From a virus (Duplodnaviria; Heunggongvirae; Uroviricota; Caudoviricetes), in the IMG/VR virus record IMGVR_UViG_2693429508_000009: DNA of 7,885 nt; one strand, given 5' to 3'. Below the pieces are notes generated by a model, which saw nothing but the letters and a program-made list of their open reading frames with translations, was not told the origin of the DNA and made no database searches. The position numbers were made by a program, and so were the translations under genes. This document shows, piece after piece, positions 2 through 7,111 of this stretch; the stretch's first letter is position 1, and every line of letters starts with the position of its first letter.

Positions 2-250
2 TGCTTAAAAAAAGAACAAATGGTAGTGTCCGCTATTGCCAGTACACCTCATCCATCACCGAAAAAAATTGGCTTTTACACCATTGGCGATAAAAGCATT
101 TACCTGTATGACCTACGCCGCATGGATGAAATCATGGAGGCTCTTGATAATCGTTCGTCGATGGATTGGTGTGTTGCTGTTCATGATATGAATGCAGGGT
201 TTGATGAAAAGATTTTGTTCCCCTCATCAGTTGAAAGCACTGCGGGTTAA
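2..250 (+). CDS. 3' end of a phage early-region protein of unknown function (frame open to the window edge; first in-window ATG at 20)
   Basis: Reading frame is open from position 2 to TAA at 248-250. The stop is followed 10 nt later by the next gene, whose SD (AAGGAG 249-254) overlaps it, i.e. operon-style packing. No family recognised. Confidence 0.4.
   Translation, partial: CLKKEQMVVSAIASTPHPSPKKIGFYTIGDKSIYLYDLRRMDEIMEALDNRSSMDWCVAVHDMNAGFDEKILFPSSVESTAG
21..51. repeat. left copy of a 31-bp perfect inverted repeat (partner 7855-7885)
   Basis: TGGTAGTGTCCGCTATTGCCAGTACACCTCA at 21-51 is the exact reverse complement of 7855-7885. The match stops at 52/7854 on the inside and is cut by the window edge on the outside. 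Confidence 0.9.
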
Positions 251-260
251 GGAGTAACAC

Positions 261-428
261 ATGACCACTATTACCAAAGAACGTATTGAATTGTTCATTA
301 AAAACCCGCTTGAAAACGGGCTTACCCGTGGTGAACAAATGGAACTGGCACGGATTGCGCTGGCATCGCTGGAAGCAGAGCCGGTTGTGTTCTGGTTTGA
401 AAAATATCAAGAAGGGGCTACGGCATGA
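261..428 (+). CDS. small hypothetical protein (55 aa), paralogous to the N-terminal part of the following ORF
   Basis: ATG 261 preceded by AAGGAG at good spacing; 55 codons to TGA 426-428, which overlaps ATG 425 of the next gene (ATGA). Missing from the ORF track only because it is under 60 aa. Shares the MTT.T.E start and an I-A-L-x-S-L-x-A-E-P motif with ORF 425-769. Confidence 0.5.
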
Positions 429-769
429 CGACTTTTACCAGAGAGCAGTTAATAGCTCACGCAGAGGAGACTATTGAAGCACAGAGACTGTGCATACCGG
501 GCACAATCGACCATGACATCATCCGCACATATAAGATGGATATTGCTGTTCTGGAAATCGCACTGGTATCGCTGGCAGCAGAGCCAGCCGGTAAATTGCA
601 TGAATACAAACCAGTGGGATATCAGCGTCTGGTCGATGAGTTAACCATGCTGGTAAAGCAGTTAACCTGGCAACTGAGGAAAGCGAAGCCAGACTGCAAA
701 TTACCGGATAAGGCGATGAGTTATCTGGAGCGGAACGGACTGATAAGCGTGGAGGATATTTTACGATGA
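425..769 (+). CDS. hypothetical phage protein (114 aa)
   Basis: ORF-track ORF with ATG overlapping the upstream stop (ATGA at 425-428); its own stop TGA 767-769 overlaps ATG 766 of a downstream mini-ORF. Protein-like composition; family not recognised. Confidence 0.55.
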
Positions 770-849
770 CCTGGCCTGAAGCATTAACAACGGTAGGAAT
801 TGCGATGGCGGTGGCGCTGGTGGTGTATTCGATTTGCCGCTGGGGATAA
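766..849 (+). CDS. possible 27-aa hydrophobic peptide ([27 protein letters not shown]), translationally coupled to the upstream gene
   Basis: ATG 766-768 overlaps the TGA 767-769 of the upstream ORF; 27 codons to TAA 847-849. Central stretch is long enough for one transmembrane helix. Too short for independent statistical support. Confidence 0.3.
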
Positions 850-1060
850 AAACGGTTTGCGGGAAAAGGAGAGTTAAGTAGAATTGCAGCGGGTGCTTGA
901 GGCTATCTGTCTCAGGCATGAACACCAAAAGGCAGATAGAGAAAAGCCCCAGTTAACATTACGCGTCCGGCAAGACGCTTAACATTAATCTGAGGCTCAA
1001 TCTATGAACGGCAAATCTAGGTTAGCCTCTTACGTGCCGAAAGGCAAGGAGAAGCAGGCT

Positions 1061-1216
1061 ATGAAGCAGCAAAAGGCGATGTTAATCGCCCTGATCGTCA
1101 TCTGTTTAACCGTCATAGTGACGGCACTGGTAACGAGGAAAGACCTCTGCGAGGTACGAATTCGAACCGGCCAGACGGAGGTCGCTGTCTTCACAGCTTA
1201 CGAACCTGAGGAGTAA
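1061..1216 (+). CDS. hokD: Hok/Gef-family type I toxin (51 aa small membrane toxin)
   Basis: Translation MKQQKAMLIALIVICLTVIVTALVTRKDLCEVRIRTGQTEVAVFTAYEPEE has the Hok/Gef hallmarks: N-terminal TM helix, TRK(D/S)LCE motif, conserved C-terminal region. It matches my recollection of E. coli HokD/RelF. SD GGAG at 1048-1051. An in-frame upstream ATG at 1004, also with a GAGG SD, would give the 70-aa ORF in the track. Family call is firm; exact paralogue is from memory. Confidence 0.85.
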   Translation: MKQQKAMLIALIVICLTVIVTALVTRKDLCEVRIRTGQTEVAVFTAYEPEE

Positions 1217-1284
1217 GAGACCAGGCGGGGGAGAAATCCCTCGCCACCTCTGATGGGTCAGGCATCCTCAATGCACCCACACTT

Positions 1285-1317
1285 AACCCGCTTCGGCGGG
1301 TTTTTGTTTTTATTTTC
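1285..1317 (+). terminator. rho-independent terminator downstream of hok
   Basis: GC stem CCCGC (1287-1291), loop TTCG, GCGGG (1296-1300), followed by a T-rich tract 1301-1317. Confidence 0.8.
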
Positions 1318-1436
1318 AACGCGTTTGAAGTTTTAGATGGTGCCGGAATAGAATCAAAAATACTTAAGTAGCGCGCAGGGAGAAGAGGGATGGACCCCGA
1401 ACAGGGGAGTGCTATTTATCTGGAAGGATTCTGTTG

Positions 1437-2043: not shown

Positions 2044-3102
2044 GTGCGGGTATTACTTCGACCTGTTCTGGTACCGGAACTCGGTCTGGTTATCGTTAAG
2101 CCAGGCCGTGAATCAATGTCAGCATTCCATAACGGCAGAATACTGGTGGAGCCGGAACCAAAAAGCATGCGTAATCTGCCGTCCGGGGTCGTTCCTGCCG
2201 CTCGCCAGCCGCTGGTGGAAGACAAAACATTGCTGCCGTTTTTCAGTAACGCACGGGTGATTCGTGCTGCTGGTGGTGCTGGTGCATTGTCTGACTGGCT
2301 GTTGCGCCATATTAAATCCTGCCAGTGGCCACACGGCGATTATCATCACAGCGAAACCGTCATTCACCGTTATGGTACCGGCGCAATGGTGTTGTGCTGG
2401 CACTGCGACAACCAGCTGCGTGACCAGACATCCGAATCACTCGAGCAACTTGCTCATCAAAACCTGTCAGCATGGATGATTGACGTCATCGGTCACGCAA
2501 TAAGCGGTACGCAGGAGCGTGAATTATCTCTGGCTGAATTATCCTGGTGGGCGGTCCGCAATCAGGTGGCGGACGCGCTACCGGAAGCGGTATTACGTCG
2601 TTCGCTGGGGTTGCGTGCGGAAAAAATTCGCTCTGTGTACAGTGAAAGCGACATCATACCGGGAGAGCAGACAGCCACCAGCATACTGAAGCAGCGCACA
2701 AAAAATATTGCGTTACTGCCTCACGTCCACCAGCAACAGAACCCACCACAGGAAAAGACGGTGGTCAGCATTGCCGTTGATCCGGAGTCACCGGCTCAGT
2801 ATCTCCAGCGCCAGAAATCACAACGGGAAGAGATGCCTGTATACACGCGCTGGGTAAAAACGCAGAAATGCATGACGTGTGGCAATCAGGCAGATGATCC
2901 GCATCACATCATTGGTCATGGACTGGGAGGGATGGGAACAAAGGCTGATGATTTGTTTGTTATTCCGTTATGCCGTAAATGCCGTAACGAACTACATGCC
3001 GGAGTAAAAGATTTTGAAGAGAAACACGGCAGTCAGCTGTTGTTGCTGATTCGTTTTTTAATGCACGCGAGAAATTCGGGTGTTCTGAAGTGGAAAGCAT
3101 AA
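2044..3102 (+). CDS. DUF968-like prophage protein (YdfU-like) with C-terminal HNH-like Cys/His motif
   Basis: 352-codon ORF from GTG 2044 (strong SD GGAGG 2034-2038), with a possible alternative ATG start at 2116. C-terminal region reads C-x2-C ... D-P-H-H ... C-x2-C ... H (CMTCGNQADDPHHIIGHG ... LCRKCRNELHAG), a beta-beta-alpha-Me/HNH-like pattern. Immediately followed by rusA (TAA 3100-3102, ATG 3103). Confidence 0.65.
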   Translation: MRVLLRPVLVPELGLVIVKPGRESMSAFHNGRILVEPEPKSMRNLPSGVVPAARQPLVEDKTLLPFFSNARVIRAAGGAGALSDWLLRHIKSCQWPHGDYHHSETVIHRYGTGAMVLCWHCDNQLRDQTSESLEQLAHQNLSAWMIDVIGHAISGTQERELSLAELSWWAVRNQVADALPEAVLRRSLGLRAEKIRSVYSESDIIPGEQTATSILKQRTKNIALLPHVHQQQNPPQEKTVVSIAVDPESPAQYLQRQKSQREEMPVYTRWVKTQKCMTCGNQADDPHHIIGHGLGGMGTKADDLFVIPLCRKCRNELHAGVKDFEEKHGSQLLLLIRFLMHARNSGVLKWKA

Positions 3103-3483
3103 ATGACCGAGCGCATAGAATTTGTTTTACCTTACCCGCCGACGGTGAACACTTACTGGCGTCGTCGTGGCAGCACATATTTTGTATCAAAAGCCGGGGA
3201 GCGTTATCGCCGGGCAGTGGCGCTTATTGTTCGCCAGCAGCGGCTGAAATTAAGCCTGTCCGGAAGGTTGGCAATAAAAATTATTGCAGAACCACCGGAT
3301 AAGCGCCGCCGTGACCTGGACAATATTCTGAAAGCGCCGCTGGATGCGCTGACGCATGCGGGGTTGCTAATGGACGATGAGCAGTTTGATGAAATCAATA
3401 TCGTTCGTGCTCAGCCAGTATCTGGTGGACGTCTGGGGGTGAAGATTTATCCCATAATGCTTGAAGGGCAGGTCAAAAAATGA
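3103..3483 (+). CDS. rusA: Holliday junction resolvase RusA (copy 1, 126 aa)
   Basis: Translation shows RusA hallmarks: LPYPPTVNTYWRRR near the N-terminus, the acidic RRRDLDN motif, LMDDEQF and GGRLGV. Stop TGA 3481-3483 overlaps the ATG 3480 of a Q-like start. Confidence 0.9.
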   Translation: MTERIEFVLPYPPTVNTYWRRRGSTYFVSKAGERYRRAVALIVRQQRLKLSLSGRLAIKIIAEPPDKRRRDLDNILKAPLDALTHAGLLMDDEQFDEINIVRAQPVSGGRLGVKIYPIMLEGQVKK

Positions 3484-3623
3484 AACTGGAAGATTTACCG
3501 AAATACTACTCCCCAAAATCCCCCGGCCTGACTGATGCATCGGCCTCAACGTCGAAAGATGCGCTGAGTATCACTGATGTGATGGCCGCGCAGGGCATGA
3601 CACAGAATCGGGCTGAGATGGGG
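3480..3623 (+). pseudogene. 5' fragment (48 codons) of a Q-like antiterminator gene, truncated at the single N at 3624; probably a contig end, not a biological truncation
   Basis: MKLEDLPKYYSPKSPGLTDASASTSKDALSITDVMAAQGMTQNRAEMG matches the N-terminus of the complete Q ORF at 4433-5287 with only a few substitutions. The sequence after the N (3625 onward) is unrelated. Confidence 0.6.
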
Positions 3624-4062: not shown

Positions 4063-4436
4063 TGCGCCATGAGTTTATTTTACCTTATCCGCCGACGGTG
4101 AATACTTACTGGCGACGTCGTGACAACACATATTTTGTATCAAAAGCCGGTGAGCGTTATCGCCGGGATGTGGCGCTTATTGTCCGTCAGCAGCGACTGA
4201 AATTAAGCCTGTCCGGAAGACTGGCGATAAAGATTATTGCAGAGCCACCGGATAAGCGCCGTCGTGACCTGGACAATATCCTGAAAGCACCACTGGATGC
4301 ACTGACACATGCGGGAGTGTTAATGGACGATGAGCAGTTTGATGAAATCAATATCGTTCGTGGTCAGCCAGTATCTGGTGGACGTCTGGGGGTGAAGATT
4401 TACCCCATAATGCATGAAGAGCAGGTCAAAAAATGA
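4062..4436 (+). CDS. rusA: Holliday junction resolvase RusA (copy 2, 124 aa)
   Basis: Same RusA motifs as copy 1. By eye roughly 90 percent identical at protein level, with differences clustered at the N-terminus plus scattered substitutions. ATGA overlap with Q at 4433-4436. Confidence 0.9.
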   Translation: MRHEFILPYPPTVNTYWRRRDNTYFVSKAGERYRRDVALIVRQQRLKLSLSGRLAIKIIAEPPDKRRRDLDNILKAPLDALTHAGVLMDDEQFDEINIVRGQPVSGGRLGVKIYPIMHEEQVKK

Positions 4437-5287
4437 AACTGGAAGATTTACCGAAATACTACTCCCCAAAATCCCCTTGCCTGACCGATGCATCGGCCTC
4501 AACGTCAAAAGATGCGCTGAGTATCACTGATGTGATGGCCGCGCAGGGCATGACACAGAATCGGGCTGAGATGGGGGTTTCTGCGTTCCTTGGGAAAATG
4601 GGCATTAGTATGAATGACAGAGAGCGGGCAACAGAATTGCTGACAGAATATGCACTCAGTCGGTGTGATCGCGTGGCGGCGTTAAGAAAACTCCCGGCAG
4701 AAATAAAACCGGCAGTGATGCGTATTATGGCTTCGTATGCGTTTGAAGATTATGCCCGTAGCGCGGCGAGCAAAAAACAGTGCCCCTGCTGTCACGGAAA
4801 AAAATTTATTGAAAGCGAGGTTTTTACAAACAAGATCCAGTATCCGGATGGTAAGCCGCCGGTATGGGCAAAGTGTACGAAAGGTGTGTATCCGTCTTAC
4901 TGGGAAGAATGGAAAAAAGTCAGGGAGGTGGTAAAAGTTGCCTGTCCGGAGTGTGGCGGAAAGGGTGAGGTTTCCACCGCCTGTAAGGATTGCCGTGGGC
5001 GTGGTGTCGCCATTCATCGTGAAGAGTCGGTAAAACGTGGTATGCCTGTTATCAGAGACTGCCAGCGTTGTGGTGGTCGTGGCTATGAAAGACTACCATC
5101 AACGGAGGCATTTAATGCTATATGCGAGGTGACAAACCAGATAACACGCGCGTCATGGGAAAAAACAGTTAAGAAATTTTATGATGCGCTGGTGACCCGG
5201 TTTGATATTGAAGAAGCATGGGCTGAGCGGCAGTTAAAAAAGGTAACTAGGTTGATTTTTCCGGAATCTGTGGTAAATTCGTCATAA
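4433..5287 (+). CDS. Q: late-gene antiterminator Q (lambdoid Q family) with a DnaJ-like cysteine-rich zinc-finger region
   Basis: Positioned directly after rusA and directly before a pR'-like promoter, a terminator and phage tRNAs. N-terminus MKLEDLPKYYSPKSP resembles E. coli prophage Q-like proteins as I recall them. Contains three perfect CxxCxGxG repeats (CPECGGKG, CKDCRGRG, CQRCGGRG) and one degenerate repeat (CPCCHGKK). Confidence 0.75.
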   Translation: MKLEDLPKYYSPKSPCLTDASASTSKDALSITDVMAAQGMTQNRAEMGVSAFLGKMGISMNDRERATELLTEYALSRCDRVAALRKLPAEIKPAVMRIMASYAFEDYARSAASKKQCPCCHGKKFIESEVFTNKIQYPDGKPPVWAKCTKGVYPSYWEEWKKVREVVKVACPECGGKGEVSTACKDCRGRGVAIHREESVKRGMPVIRDCQRCGGRGYERLPSTEAFNAICEVTNQITRASWEKTVKKFYDALVTRFDIEEAWAERQLKKVTRLIFPESVVNSS

Positions 5288-5389: not shown

Positions 5390-5465
5390 GGCCCTTTAGC
5401 TCAGTGGTGAGAGCGAGCGACTCATAATCGCCAGGTCGCTGGTTCAAATCCAGCAAGGGCCACCA
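5390..5465 (+). tRNA. ileZ: tRNA-Ile (anticodon CAU; presumably lysidine-modified, reads AUA)
   Basis: 76 nt. 7-bp acceptor stem GGCCCTT/AAGGGCC, D-arm AGCTCAGTGGTGAGAGC, anticodon loop CTCATAA, T-arm GGTTCAAATCC, discriminator A plus encoded CCA. Very close to E. coli tRNA-Ile2 (ileX) as recalled. The symbol follows the Stx-phage convention and is not verified. Confidence 0.9.
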
Positions 5466-5565
5466 TCACAAACCGCCATTAGCTTATCAGGAAGAGCAGA
5501 CGACACGATAACAGGGTTGTTGGTGCGGGGGCGGGTCCCCGATGGCGGTCCATTATCGGTATTCA

Positions 5566-5642
5566 GCGTTGTTAGCTCAGCCGGACAGAGCAATTGCCTT
5601 CTAAGCAATCGGTCACTGGTTCGAATCCAGTACAGCGCGCCA
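5566..5642 (+). tRNA. tRNA-Arg (anticodon UCU, reads rare AGA/AGG)
   Basis: 77 nt. Acceptor stem GCGTTGT/ACAGCGC with one G-U pair, anticodon loop CTTCTAA (UCU), T-arm ACTGG-TTCGAAT-CCAGT, discriminator G plus CCA. argN/argO-like, as in Stx phages. Confidence 0.9.
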
Positions 5643-5752: not shown

Positions 5753-6106
5753 TTGATTGAGTGTTTGTTATACGGTCTAATGGTTTTTTCAGCATTAAAT
5801 ATTTATCATTCATATGGTGTGGGTAGAGTGAATATTGATGAGGCGTCGGGGTGTTTCATCCTTAGGCAGCGTATTGATATAGTCAATGCAGCACGAGCAA
5901 AGGCCTTCAGCCGTTTGACAGTTTTGTTCTGTACTCCTGATCGTCTTTCGGGAAGAGACGTTATTATTCTGAATAGTGATGCTATACAGAGGGTTTGCGA
6001 TGAGTTCATGGTTGCTAATTCAGAATTATTTGCTCTTGTTCAGGAGTACAACAGAATAGCCAGGACCTGTGGTATGGATGAACTTCGGATTACTCATCTG
6101 GGGTAG
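5753..6106 (+). CDS. hypothetical ORF (117 aa from TTG; no convincing SD), possibly a gene remnant in the stx-equivalent cargo slot
   Basis: ORF-track ORF; its 5' part is AT-rich and lacks a ribosome-binding site, while the C-terminal two-thirds has protein-like composition. No family recognised and no resemblance to Stx A or B subunits. Confidence 0.3.
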   Translation: MIECLLYGLMVFSALNIYHSYGVGRVNIDEASGCFILRQRIDIVNAARAKAFSRLTVLFCTPDRLSGRDVIILNSDAIQRVCDEFMVANSELFALVQEYNRIARTCGMDELRITHLG

Positions 6107-6291
6107 ATACATATCTGGATTATCACCTGTTACGGTAAAAAGTGATTGCTTACTGTTTTTGTGAATGGCATTGCAGCAGCCGGATAATGTCAGTGCTGGC
6201 TGACGGTGTGCTGGTGGCGGGTGTGGTGGTTGTTGCTTTCCCGTTGCTGAAAAAGAAAACGCCAGACTGTTAGCCGGGTATCAGTTAGCGG
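6034..6291. repeat. 258-bp exact direct repeat, copy A (ends at the N gap)
   Basis: Identical by eye to 6612-6869; copy A runs into the N run at 6292 and copy B starts right after the 5-N run. This is the pattern of unmerged contig-end overlap in a scaffold. Confidence 0.85.
6187..6273 (+). CDS. possible 28-aa hydrophobic peptide (MSVLADGVLVAGVVVVAFPLLKKKTPDC); a second identical copy at 6765-6851 lies within repeat copy B
   Basis: ATG 6187 to TAG 6271-6273. Hydrophobic core followed by a KKK cluster (single-TM-like). Weak or absent SD; too short for statistical support. Confidence 0.2.
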   Translation: MSVLADGVLVAGVVVVAFPLLKKKTPDC

Positions 6292-6503
6292 NNNNNNNNN
6301 NNNNNNNNNNNNNNNNNNNNNNNNNNNNNNNNNNNNNNNNNNNNNNNNNNNNNNNNNNNNNNNNNNNNNNNNNNNNNNNNNNNNNNNNNNNNNNNNNNNN
6401 NNNNNNNNNNNNNNNNNNNNNNNNNNNNNNNNNNNNNNNNNNNNNNNNNNNNNNNNNNNNNNNNNNNNNNNNNNNNNNNNNNNNNNNNNNNNNNNNNNNN
6501 NNN
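6292..6503. other. assembly gap (run of N); single N at 3624 and 5 N at 6607-6611 are further joins
   Basis: Unresolved bases in the sequence itself. Confidence 0.95.
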
Positions 6504-6577
6504 CCCTTTAGCTCAGTGGTGAGAGCGAGCGACTCATAATCGCCAGGTCGCTGGTTCAAATCCAGCAAGGGCCACCA
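6502..6577 (+). tRNA. second tRNA-Ile(CAU) copy on a small placed fragment (first 2 nt masked by N)
   Basis: 6504-6577 is identical to the tRNA at 5392-5465. The 3' flank (6578-6606) differs from the first copy's flank at three positions, so this is a paralogous copy, probably from another prophage, inserted between the gaps. Confidence 0.7.
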
Positions 6578-6611
6578 TCACATACCGCCATTAGCTCATC
6601 AGGAAANNNNN

Positions 6612-6869
6612 TCTTGTTCAGGAGTACAACAGAATAGCCAGGACCTGTGGTATGGATGAACTTCGGATTACTCATCTGGGGTAGATACATATCTGGATTA
6701 TCACCTGTTACGGTAAAAAGTGATTGCTTACTGTTTTTGTGAATGGCATTGCAGCAGCCGGATAATGTCAGTGCTGGCTGACGGTGTGCTGGTGGCGGGT
6801 GTGGTGGTTGTTGCTTTCCCGTTGCTGAAAAAGAAAACGCCAGACTGTTAGCCGGGTATCAGTTAGCGG
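6612..6869. repeat. 258-bp exact direct repeat, copy B
   Basis: Identical to 6034-6291; unique sequence resumes at 6870. Confidence 0.85.
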
Positions 6870-7076
6870 GAGAAATTTTTAAATACTTCACAATTCAGGC
6901 GGTTGACTGTTGTCTGGTTTGCGGGGAGTTTGTTAAAAGAAACTGGCATGGTGAATCCCCCTGTGCGGAGGGGCAATCAGCGAGTAGGTATATGGGATAA
7001 TCGCGGATTCAGGTGCTGGTACTGAATTCACCGGGAGGCACCCGGCACCATGCAATGGCACATAGCGCCACTCTCC

Positions 7077-7111
7077 AGCCCCTCTCCGGAGGGGCTGTTT
7101 ATATTGATTTT
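7077..7111 (+). terminator. stem-loop with U-rich tail (probable + strand terminator closing the tRNA/cargo transcript)
   Basis: AGCCCCT (7077-7083), loop CTCCGG, AGGGGCT (7090-7096), followed by GTTTATATTGATTTT. Confidence 0.5.

Follow-up and report, generated by a model that had tools for sequence, protein, structure and literature searches.

Plasmid R1 carries a hok/mok/sok (parB) system that acts by post-segregational killing. Its hok mRNA has been described in a closed, an open and a metastable state (PMC9841398). A prophage-borne relative, hokW/mokW/sokW, is found in the Stx2 phage 933W and the Sakai prophage Sp5. There the sokW RNA was detected, HokW proved toxic and was located in the inner membrane, and mutations in the sokW promoter (-10 region, Figure 1E) abolished protection by the antitoxin (PMC8621323). 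When a prophage carrying hokW-sokW is induced, the sokW RNA is lost, and HokW appears about 1 h ahead of the endolysin; growth is arrested about 40 min earlier, phage release is approximately two-fold higher, and lysis is assisted (PMC8621323). HokW and R1 Hok are 44% identical (PMC8621323). Further members of the family, hokC (gef) and hokD (relF), are encoded in the genome of E. coli K-12, the latter in the cryptic prophage Qin. Overexpressed RelF/HokD has reportedly been known to be toxic since 1986.

We analysed a stretch of 7,885 nucleotides, referred to below as the window, that comes from a mosaic lambdoid (Qin-like) E. coli prophage. All sizeable ORFs of the window are directed rightward. 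Small ORFs are followed by the hok cassette, an ORF of 87 aa, a DUF968 gene, two consecutive RusA genes, the gene of antiterminator Q, tRNA genes, and an sRNA of the STnc100 family. The position of the 87-aa ORF matches that of K-12 rem, and the DUF968 ORF is similar to ydfU. E. coli GF4 has this gene order in its annotation as well, hokD-rem-DUF968-RusA-Q-tRNAs. In Qin of K-12 the order is hokD-rem-ydfU-Q, so that the neighbours rem, DUF968/ydfU and Q are common to the downstream side of both loci. Phage mEp460 carries hok (labelled MokW protein) and rem, next an ORF of 1050 bp situated where the window has DUF968, and then RusA and Q.

Taken together, the sequence comparisons, the predicted folds and the homology with described systems make it very probable that bases 875-1310 are a type I toxin-antitoxin cassette of the canonical hok/mok/sok kind, complete and belonging to the HokD/HokW lineage. 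It would be a self-contained unit extending from promoter to terminator in the early rightward (nin) region of the Qin-like prophage, with a mechanism similar to those of R1 and hokW. All sequence elements and predicted structures of the cassette are present in the window, and all are conserved (Table 1).

Table 1. Features of the hok/mok/sok cassette and of the sequence upstream of it (positions in the window).
Feature	Position	Strand	Comment
Small ORFs, product not assigned	20-849	+	upstream of the hok cassette
Candidate hok promoter -35, TTGCGG	857-862	+	weak, within poorly conserved sequence
Probable hok promoter -10, TAGAAT	879-884	+	read from the sequence; register shared with homologues
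Full-length hok mRNA, about 420 nt, probable ends	891-1310	+	5' end from Rfam model position 1 and alignment with hokC, hokB and R1; 3' end from the terminator
tac (translational activator), 5' end of the mRNA	891-902	+	pairs with 1266-1278 in the predicted full-length fold and with 944-950 when the 3' end is shortened
tac-stem hairpin of the open (processed) form	891-950	+	Rfam structure, fold of 891-1264, compensatory changes; holds the 7-bp stem and ucb
Predicted Sok antisense RNA, about 71-75 nt, probable ends	938-1012	-	mapped from the 933W sokW and K-12 sokC annotations
ucb (anti-SD element)	944-950	+	inside the tac-stem hairpin
Sok-target hairpin	952-989	+	Rfam structure and predicted folds; 16-nt G+C-rich insertion at the tip relative to the Rfam consensus
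mok Shine-Dalgarno box, GAGG	992-995	+	8 nt before ATG 1004
mok reading frame, 70 aa	1004-1216	+	in frame with hok (Hok plus 19 extra N-terminal residues); layout as in annotated mokW and mokC
Putative sok promoter	1019-1047	-	-35 TTGCCT (1047-1042), 17-nt spacer, -10 TAACCT (1024-1019); read from the sequence
hok Shine-Dalgarno box, AAGGAG	1046-1051	+	read from the sequence; K-12 hokD homology starts here
hok toxin gene, 51 aa	1061-1216	+	identical to HokD/RelF; Pfam HOK_GEF match
G+C-rich 3' hairpin	1224-1245	+	stem of nine pairs in the MFE structure; by comparison with R1 (PMC9841398), probably protects the processed mRNA at its 3' end
fbi (fold-back inhibition), CCUCAAUGCACCC	1266-1278	+	pairs with 891-902, one bulged U
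Intrinsic terminator of the hok mRNA	1285-1310	+	stem 1285-1302, then T-run

An earlier reading of the window, made from the sequence only, had assigned the toxin ORF to the Hok/Gef family. Indeed, the product matches Pfam HOK_GEF (PF01848) with 81.6 bits at a cut-off of 22 (E = 3e-23), and all of its residues (51/51, 100%) coincide with those of K-12 HokD. DNA with 100% identity is labelled hokD in RefSeq. The same reading had noted the strong terminator after hok, and a stem followed by a T-run is observed there. A permissive Rfam search of 780-1420 also placed isrK (25.7 bits, threshold 50) and rsmX (23.3 bits, threshold 56) over the 3' UTR and terminator; both are below threshold, and these candidates were rejected as unsupported.

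The non-coding leader, given before as about 200 bp, measures 170 nt from the probable start G891 to the hok ATG and 212 nt from the stop codon (848) of the preceding small ORF. On the plus strand, region 891-1066 matches the Rfam family RF01794 ('sok') along the entire model (positions 1-157 of 157), scoring 112.4 bits where the gathering score is 59. Since the model stops at the hok AUG, it describes the hok mRNA leader in the sense orientation, the Sok gene being its complement.

The predicted fold of the full-length transcript 891-1310 (MFE -169 kcal/mol) has both ends paired. The tac and fbi elements, whose pairing had been proposed for inspection, form 12 bp in it with pair probabilities of 0.90-1.0. 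The partners are GGGUGCUUGAGG and CCUCAAUGCACCC in the window, GGGUGCCUGAGA and UCUCAUGGCACCC in hokB, GGCGCUUGAG and CUGAAGCGCC in R1; compared with the window, the changes in hokB and R1 are compensated. The tac element is absolutely conserved (100%) in 65 loci. In the same fold the mok Shine-Dalgarno box is sequestered by pairing of ucb positions 945-948 with 994-997. Folding of 891-1264 gives the open form, where the tac stem pairs 891-898 with 944-950, the target hairpin occupies 952-989, and the region of the mok Shine-Dalgarno box (992-997) pairs with dcb (1024-1029). Folding of 891-1250 and 891-1258 gives a metastable 5' hairpin (893-902 with 910-919). The closed, open and metastable states known from the hok mRNA of R1 (PMC9841398) are thus all recovered. 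These folds are thermodynamic predictions, the minimum among the alternatives depending on the assumed end of 3' processing.

A stem of 7 bp, CTATCTG/CAGATAG, had been noticed around 910-950. The stem is present, and its position is slightly further to the left, 903-909 and 933-939. It forms the core of the first hairpin of RF01794, which is longer (891-950) and conserved. RNAalifold applied to 16 homologues (phage loci, 933W, hokC, hokB, and an R1-type plasmid) recovers this tac-stem hairpin with two-sided changes in four pairs; in particular, the pair A905-U937 is replaced by U-A or G-C in four sequences. Since the stem is paired in the Rfam model and A905-U937 covaries, the stem is not a chance occurrence.

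Candidate promoters were found for both RNAs. The -10 box of hok lies 6 nt before the GGGTGC/GGCGC 5' end, in the same register as TATAAT in K-12 hokC and TATGAT in the R1-type plasmid. On the minus strand, the sok -10 box TAACCT matches three of the six consensus positions and is followed at a distance of 7 nt by a purine, G1012. The hexamers TTGCCT-17-TAACCT occur in 52 of 68 distinct loci and TTGACC-18-TAATCT in 8 of 68, the window site being below the threshold of a generic scan. Indeed, a generic sigma-70 scan of 780-1440 reported neither the hok nor the sok promoter; its sole promoter match, at 1325-1354, is unrelated, and the scan does recover the terminator 1285-1302. Therefore the assignment of the promoters relies on the register, on conservation among homologues, and on 933W, which is identical to the window from 1018 to the hok ATG, both sok hexamers included; for the same reason, we infer rather than observe the expression of hok and sok in the window. 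The search for an antisense promoter suggested by the sequence-only reading thus gave a mixed outcome: a site identical to that of sokW is present on the minus strand, and the generic scan reports none.

The annotated 933W sokW and K-12 sokC each overlap the first 9 nt of their mok genes. The Sok RNA mapped from them to the window is predicted to form one long hairpin, preceded by about 9-13 nt of single-stranded 5' tail and followed by a CUUUUCUCU tail. The predicted free energy is -31.4 kcal/mol (z = -5.2), and none of 200 shuffled sequences was as stable. The sequence-only reading had made the completeness of the locus depend on a leader capable of the hok-type long-range structure and on an antisense RNA; the fold and the antisense gene are both present as predictions, and the claim of a complete locus holds.

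In K-12, hokD is situated directly behind relE. It is homologous to the window only from a point near 1046 onward, about 15 nt before the hok ATG, and what precedes this point is the 3' end of relE. Because relB-relE is fused there, K-12 hokD has neither the hok nor the sok promoter, and tac, ucb, the Sok target and the mok start are absent as well. The earlier statement that K-12 hokD is devoid of mok/sok control therefore agrees with the alignment to the window. It was also correct that the hok gene of the window stands alone: the K-12-type arrangement, with relE immediately upstream and no leader, mok or sok, was looked for in the window, and a full leader was found in its place.

We considered the distribution of both arrangements. 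Among 80 IMG/VR phage contigs encoding an identical Hok, the leader is at least 84% identical to that of the window in 70, and 7 have a divergent (75-79%) leader of the same kind; two have the relE junction, and one (L083, 62%) has an unrelated upstream sequence. In a set of 5426 complete E. coli genomes, coverage of the leader and the 5' part of hok (891-1131) reaches at least 80% in 4023, where some copies are 100% identical and annotated as hokD. The relE-hokD junction of K-12 is covered in 1165 of these 5426 genomes. These counts make the arrangement of the window the common, intact form and that of K-12 a truncated minority. Thus the locus is not the unusual one that it had been supposed to be; the relBE-hokD locus of K-12 is the exception. 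The cassette is of an already known type, widespread and already annotated.

Conservation delimits the cassette. In 65 distinct phage-borne copies the identity to the window is 0.94-1.00 over most of 891-1300, and only 0.59-0.76 at 851-870 and 0.56 at 1311-1320, so that it falls just outside approximately 871-1310. This suggests that the unit from the -10 box to the terminator moves among differing phage contexts.

The cassette might nevertheless be a silent remnant whose sequence is intact but which has no function, a state suggested for K-12 hokD and other chromosomal hok loci. The match of both promoters to the consensus is weak. Tyr47 of Hok is encoded in the context TAC-G, and so full toxicity may require A-to-I editing. 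In a statement cited in a preprint (bioRxiv 10.1101/2025.08.07.668861), chromosomal hokA, hokB and hokC are said neither to mediate post-segregational killing nor to respond to rifampicin by activation; for that reason the intact sequence of the window is not a proof of activity. On the other hand, nothing is missing or interrupted in the window, unlike K-12 hokD. The non-coding control elements are 94-100% conserved in the 65 distinct copies whereas the flanks are not, and the stems show compensatory changes, which argues for selection. Moreover, the hokW/sokW cassette, 91.6% identical, is active in its native prophage (PMC8621323). We consider an inert remnant quite unlikely.

The reading frame of mok calls for a separate discussion. 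ATG 1004 had been recognised as an upstream start in frame with hok and having its own Shine-Dalgarno box, and it is confirmed as such: it lies 57 nt upstream of the hok ATG, and the ORF spans the hok start. Through this overlapping upstream mok frame with its own Shine-Dalgarno box, translation of hok would be coupled to that of mok. Since the two frames and the stop codon are shared, ribosomes starting at 1004 must produce a 70-aa Mok-Hok protein. The in-frame layout had been contrasted with the canonical out-of-frame overlap, and an atypical regulation had been proposed from it. One possibility would be that the main product is this N-terminally extended Hok and that the control differs from the canonical coupling of mok and hok, although a membrane activity of the 70-aa form itself is hypothetical. 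In plasmid R1 mok is out of frame with hok, the start codons (AUG 116 and AUG 174) being 58 nt apart (PMC9841398); the same spacing, also out of frame, is seen in K-12 mokB/hokB. However, in-frame pairs with a spacing of 57 nt and a shared stop codon are annotated in K-12 (mokC/hokC) and 933W (mokW/hokW), and an R1-like IncFII plasmid has a spacing of 57 nt in frame as well. The latter copy rules out the view that mok is always out of frame in R1-type loci. As R1 itself has 58 nt, the frame was discarded as a criterion for the family.

The 57-nt spacing, with a 70-aa ORF in frame, is shared by 57 of the 68 distinct phage loci whose Hok is identical. In 8 of the 68 the spacing is 1 nt shorter (56 nt), and the out-of-frame mok of 19 codons has a stop codon overlapping the hok ATG. 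Thus the frame of mok is not constrained and drifts, while the cassette stays unchanged. In R1, all that matters is that mok is translated as far as the hok start (PMC9841398). All the remaining control elements in the window are canonical. Judging by the sequences compared, an in-frame mok is the norm for the hokC/hokD/hokW branch, and an atypically regulated hok with the extended protein as its main product appears highly improbable.

For the canonical cassette, the steps of the mechanism are likely to be those of plasmid R1 hok/sok and phage hokW/sokW, from which they are taken over by homology. A weak constitutive promoter (-10 at 879-884) would produce a stable hok transcript of about 420 nt. 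In the full-length transcript tac would pair with fbi, and ucb would hold the mok ribosome-binding site; with the ends paired and this site held, the RNA would be neither translated nor bound by Sok. Slow trimming from the 3' end would remove fbi, after which the 5' end would pair with ucb and the region of the mok start would be exposed. Ribosomes on mok would then open the hok start, and Hok would be made. As long as it is supplied, the short unstable Sok RNA (about 1012 to 938, minus strand) would bind the exposed mok start region via its single-stranded 5' tail, block translation of mok, and mark the duplex for cleavage by RNase III. When the supply of Sok stops, Hok would insert into the inner membrane and depolarise or kill the cell. 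For the window copy we infer from its relatives the ends of the transcripts, the 3' processing, the instability of Sok, the toxicity in the native context, and the biological role.

By analogy with hokW, the most likely trigger in the prophage is induction; prophage loss is a possible second trigger. A role in addiction or abortive infection, which the sequence-only reading had proposed, is plausible in itself. That it is the main role, in place of assistance to lysis on induction, is possible, but we regard it as the less probable case. The R1 hok/sok system stabilises plasmids and lowers the plating efficiency of T4, as summarised in PMC8621323, and prophages show an approximately four-fold enrichment of hok genes (bioRxiv 10.1101/2025.08.07.668861). 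However, hok was not found to be enriched in the vicinity of defence systems (bioRxiv 10.1101/2025.08.07.668861). In the sole direct test of a prophage-borne relative, assayed on induction, growth stopped sooner and phage release was about two-fold higher (PMC8621323).

A more speculative reading, to which we give somewhat little weight, has two parts. Firstly, transcriptional interference may couple the cassette to prophage induction. The hok gene of the window is co-directional with the early rightward operon, and hokW of 933W is co-directional with the leftward pL operon after excision and circularisation. Because of this orientation, anti-terminated early transcripts would in both phages meet the sok promoter head-on and pass the hok terminator. 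If so, Sok would be shut off and 5'-extended hok RNAs would be produced; this could account for the RecA-dependent loss of sokW RNA, for which the authors of that study gave no explanation (PMC8621323). Secondly, the variable patch at approximately 996-1020, which comprises mok codons 2-6 and the matching 5' tail of Sok, may be a specificity code. The patch shows 17 leader-type variants among the 80 loci with an identical Hok, and such a code could prevent cross-protection among several hok/sok copies of one genome.

The value of the locus as a discovery is small, as a cassette of this type was annotated in 933W in 1999 and a close relative was characterised in 2021. Its use is in correction and annotation: the textbook hokD of K-12 is the truncated minority form, and automated annotation gives the toxin ORF only, omitting mok and the Sok RNA.

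Among the known systems, the window is closest to hokW/mokW/sokW of 933W and Sp5, with 91.6% nucleotide identity over window positions 780-1288. All three genes are annotated in 933W, which has the same 70-aa in-frame mok, 51-aa hok, and hok Shine-Dalgarno box. The differences are in residues 2-5 of Mok and the matching 5' tail of Sok (9 of 15 bases over 1002-1016), in four residues of the C-terminal part of Hok, and in the terminator after fbi, which 933W lacks. The 933W cassette occupies the extreme right of the prophage map, that of the window the nin region. K-12 hokD of Qin has the same hok Shine-Dalgarno box, 3' UTR and fbi within the compared stretch. In K-12 hokC/mokC/sokC, a 69-aa mok is in frame and shares its stop codon with the 50-aa hok, and sokC overlaps the mok start. 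The hokC leader aligns with that of the window throughout, and the tac element GGGUGCUUGAGGC is the same in both. The hokC leader has about 20 nt less, its Sok-target hairpin being without the G+C-rich tip; sokC has a promoter of the TTGACC-18-TAATCT type, and an IS186 element lies 19 bp downstream of the stop codon. Finally, the tac, ucb, Sok target, mok Shine-Dalgarno box, dcb and fbi of plasmid R1 are all matched in the prophage-borne copy of the window, and its antisense RNA by the predicted Sok.

The leader of the hok mRNA contains a variable patch at window positions 996-1020. Across 65 distinct phage-borne copies, mean identity to the window in this patch is only 0.66-0.76, while the rest of the leader is 94-100% conserved. 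The patch takes in the surroundings of the mok ATG, codons 2-6 of mok, and the corresponding 5' single-stranded tail of the antisense RNA Sok. Among 80 phage loci, all with identical Hok, it occurs in 17 leader-type versions, encoding such diverse mok N-termini as MNGKS, MLYTR, MLDTC, MLNTC and MSHKC. Differing versions are present on two contigs of one genome (L046 and L063). One possibility is that the patch might determine Sok/hok specificity between co-resident copies.

The Tyr47 codon of Hok, TAC, is followed by G (TAC GAA), creating a TACG motif at positions 1199-1202. TadA performs A-to-I editing at this motif. Editing has been reported in hokC, hokD and hokE, and the Tyr-Glu pair (TAC GAA) at this position is reported to be conserved in 62% of Hok peptides (bioRxiv 10.1101/2025.08.07.668861). 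Editing at this site would turn Tyr47 into Cys.

The segment 1225-1306, covering the hairpin of the hok 3' untranslated region, the 3' element fbi and the terminator, has a sub-threshold Rfam match to isrK, an sRNA of the Salmonella Gifsy-1 prophage (25.7 bits, E = 0.0018; the gathering score is 50). This similarity may be due to chance or to a distant relation. In phage 933W, similarity of the hokW cassette to the window ends right after fbi (L001, approximately 2995-3060, versus window 1280-1310), and the terminator hairpin of the window has no counterpart after fbi of hokW. Thus the 3' end of the hokW mRNA must form in another way.

Two neighbours of the cassette are listed in the table. 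Just 5' of it ends an unannotated hydrophobic ORF, possibly encoding a small membrane protein. Between the hok terminator and an 87-aa ORF in the rem position (1434-1697), close behind the former and about 80 nt before the latter, lies a candidate sigma-70 promoter.

Features of the window outside the hok cassette
Feature	Position	Details
27-aa hydrophobic ORF	766-849	unannotated; start in ATGA overlap with preceding ORF
Sigma-70 site	1325-1354	+ strand; TTGAAG-18-TAGAAT; sole site reported by the scan of 780-1440
N runs	3624, 6292-6503, 6607-6611	flanked by exact duplications
Exact repeat pair	3368-3623 / 4321-4576	offset 953
Exact repeat pair	6034-6291 / 6612-6869	offset 578
Exact repeat pair	5392-5470 / 6504-6582	offset 1112
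tRNA-Met(cat)	5390-5465	downstream of Q
tRNA-Arg(tct)	5566-5642	downstream of Q
Second tRNA-Met(cat)	6502-6577	downstream of Q
STnc100 (sRNA family)	6917-7106	full-length match, 132 bits versus gathering score 47

The duplications beside the N runs produce a second RusA-Q junction and the second tRNA-Met gene. Taken together, the N runs and repeats look like an artefact of scaffolding or assembly in a multi-copy lambdoid region, or like masking, rather than biology.

Q is followed in the window by the three tRNA genes and then by STnc100. Location of tRNA genes behind Q is the usual layout of the late region in lambdoid and Stx-type prophages; likewise, in E. coli GF4 tRNA genes (Ile, Lys) are situated behind Q.
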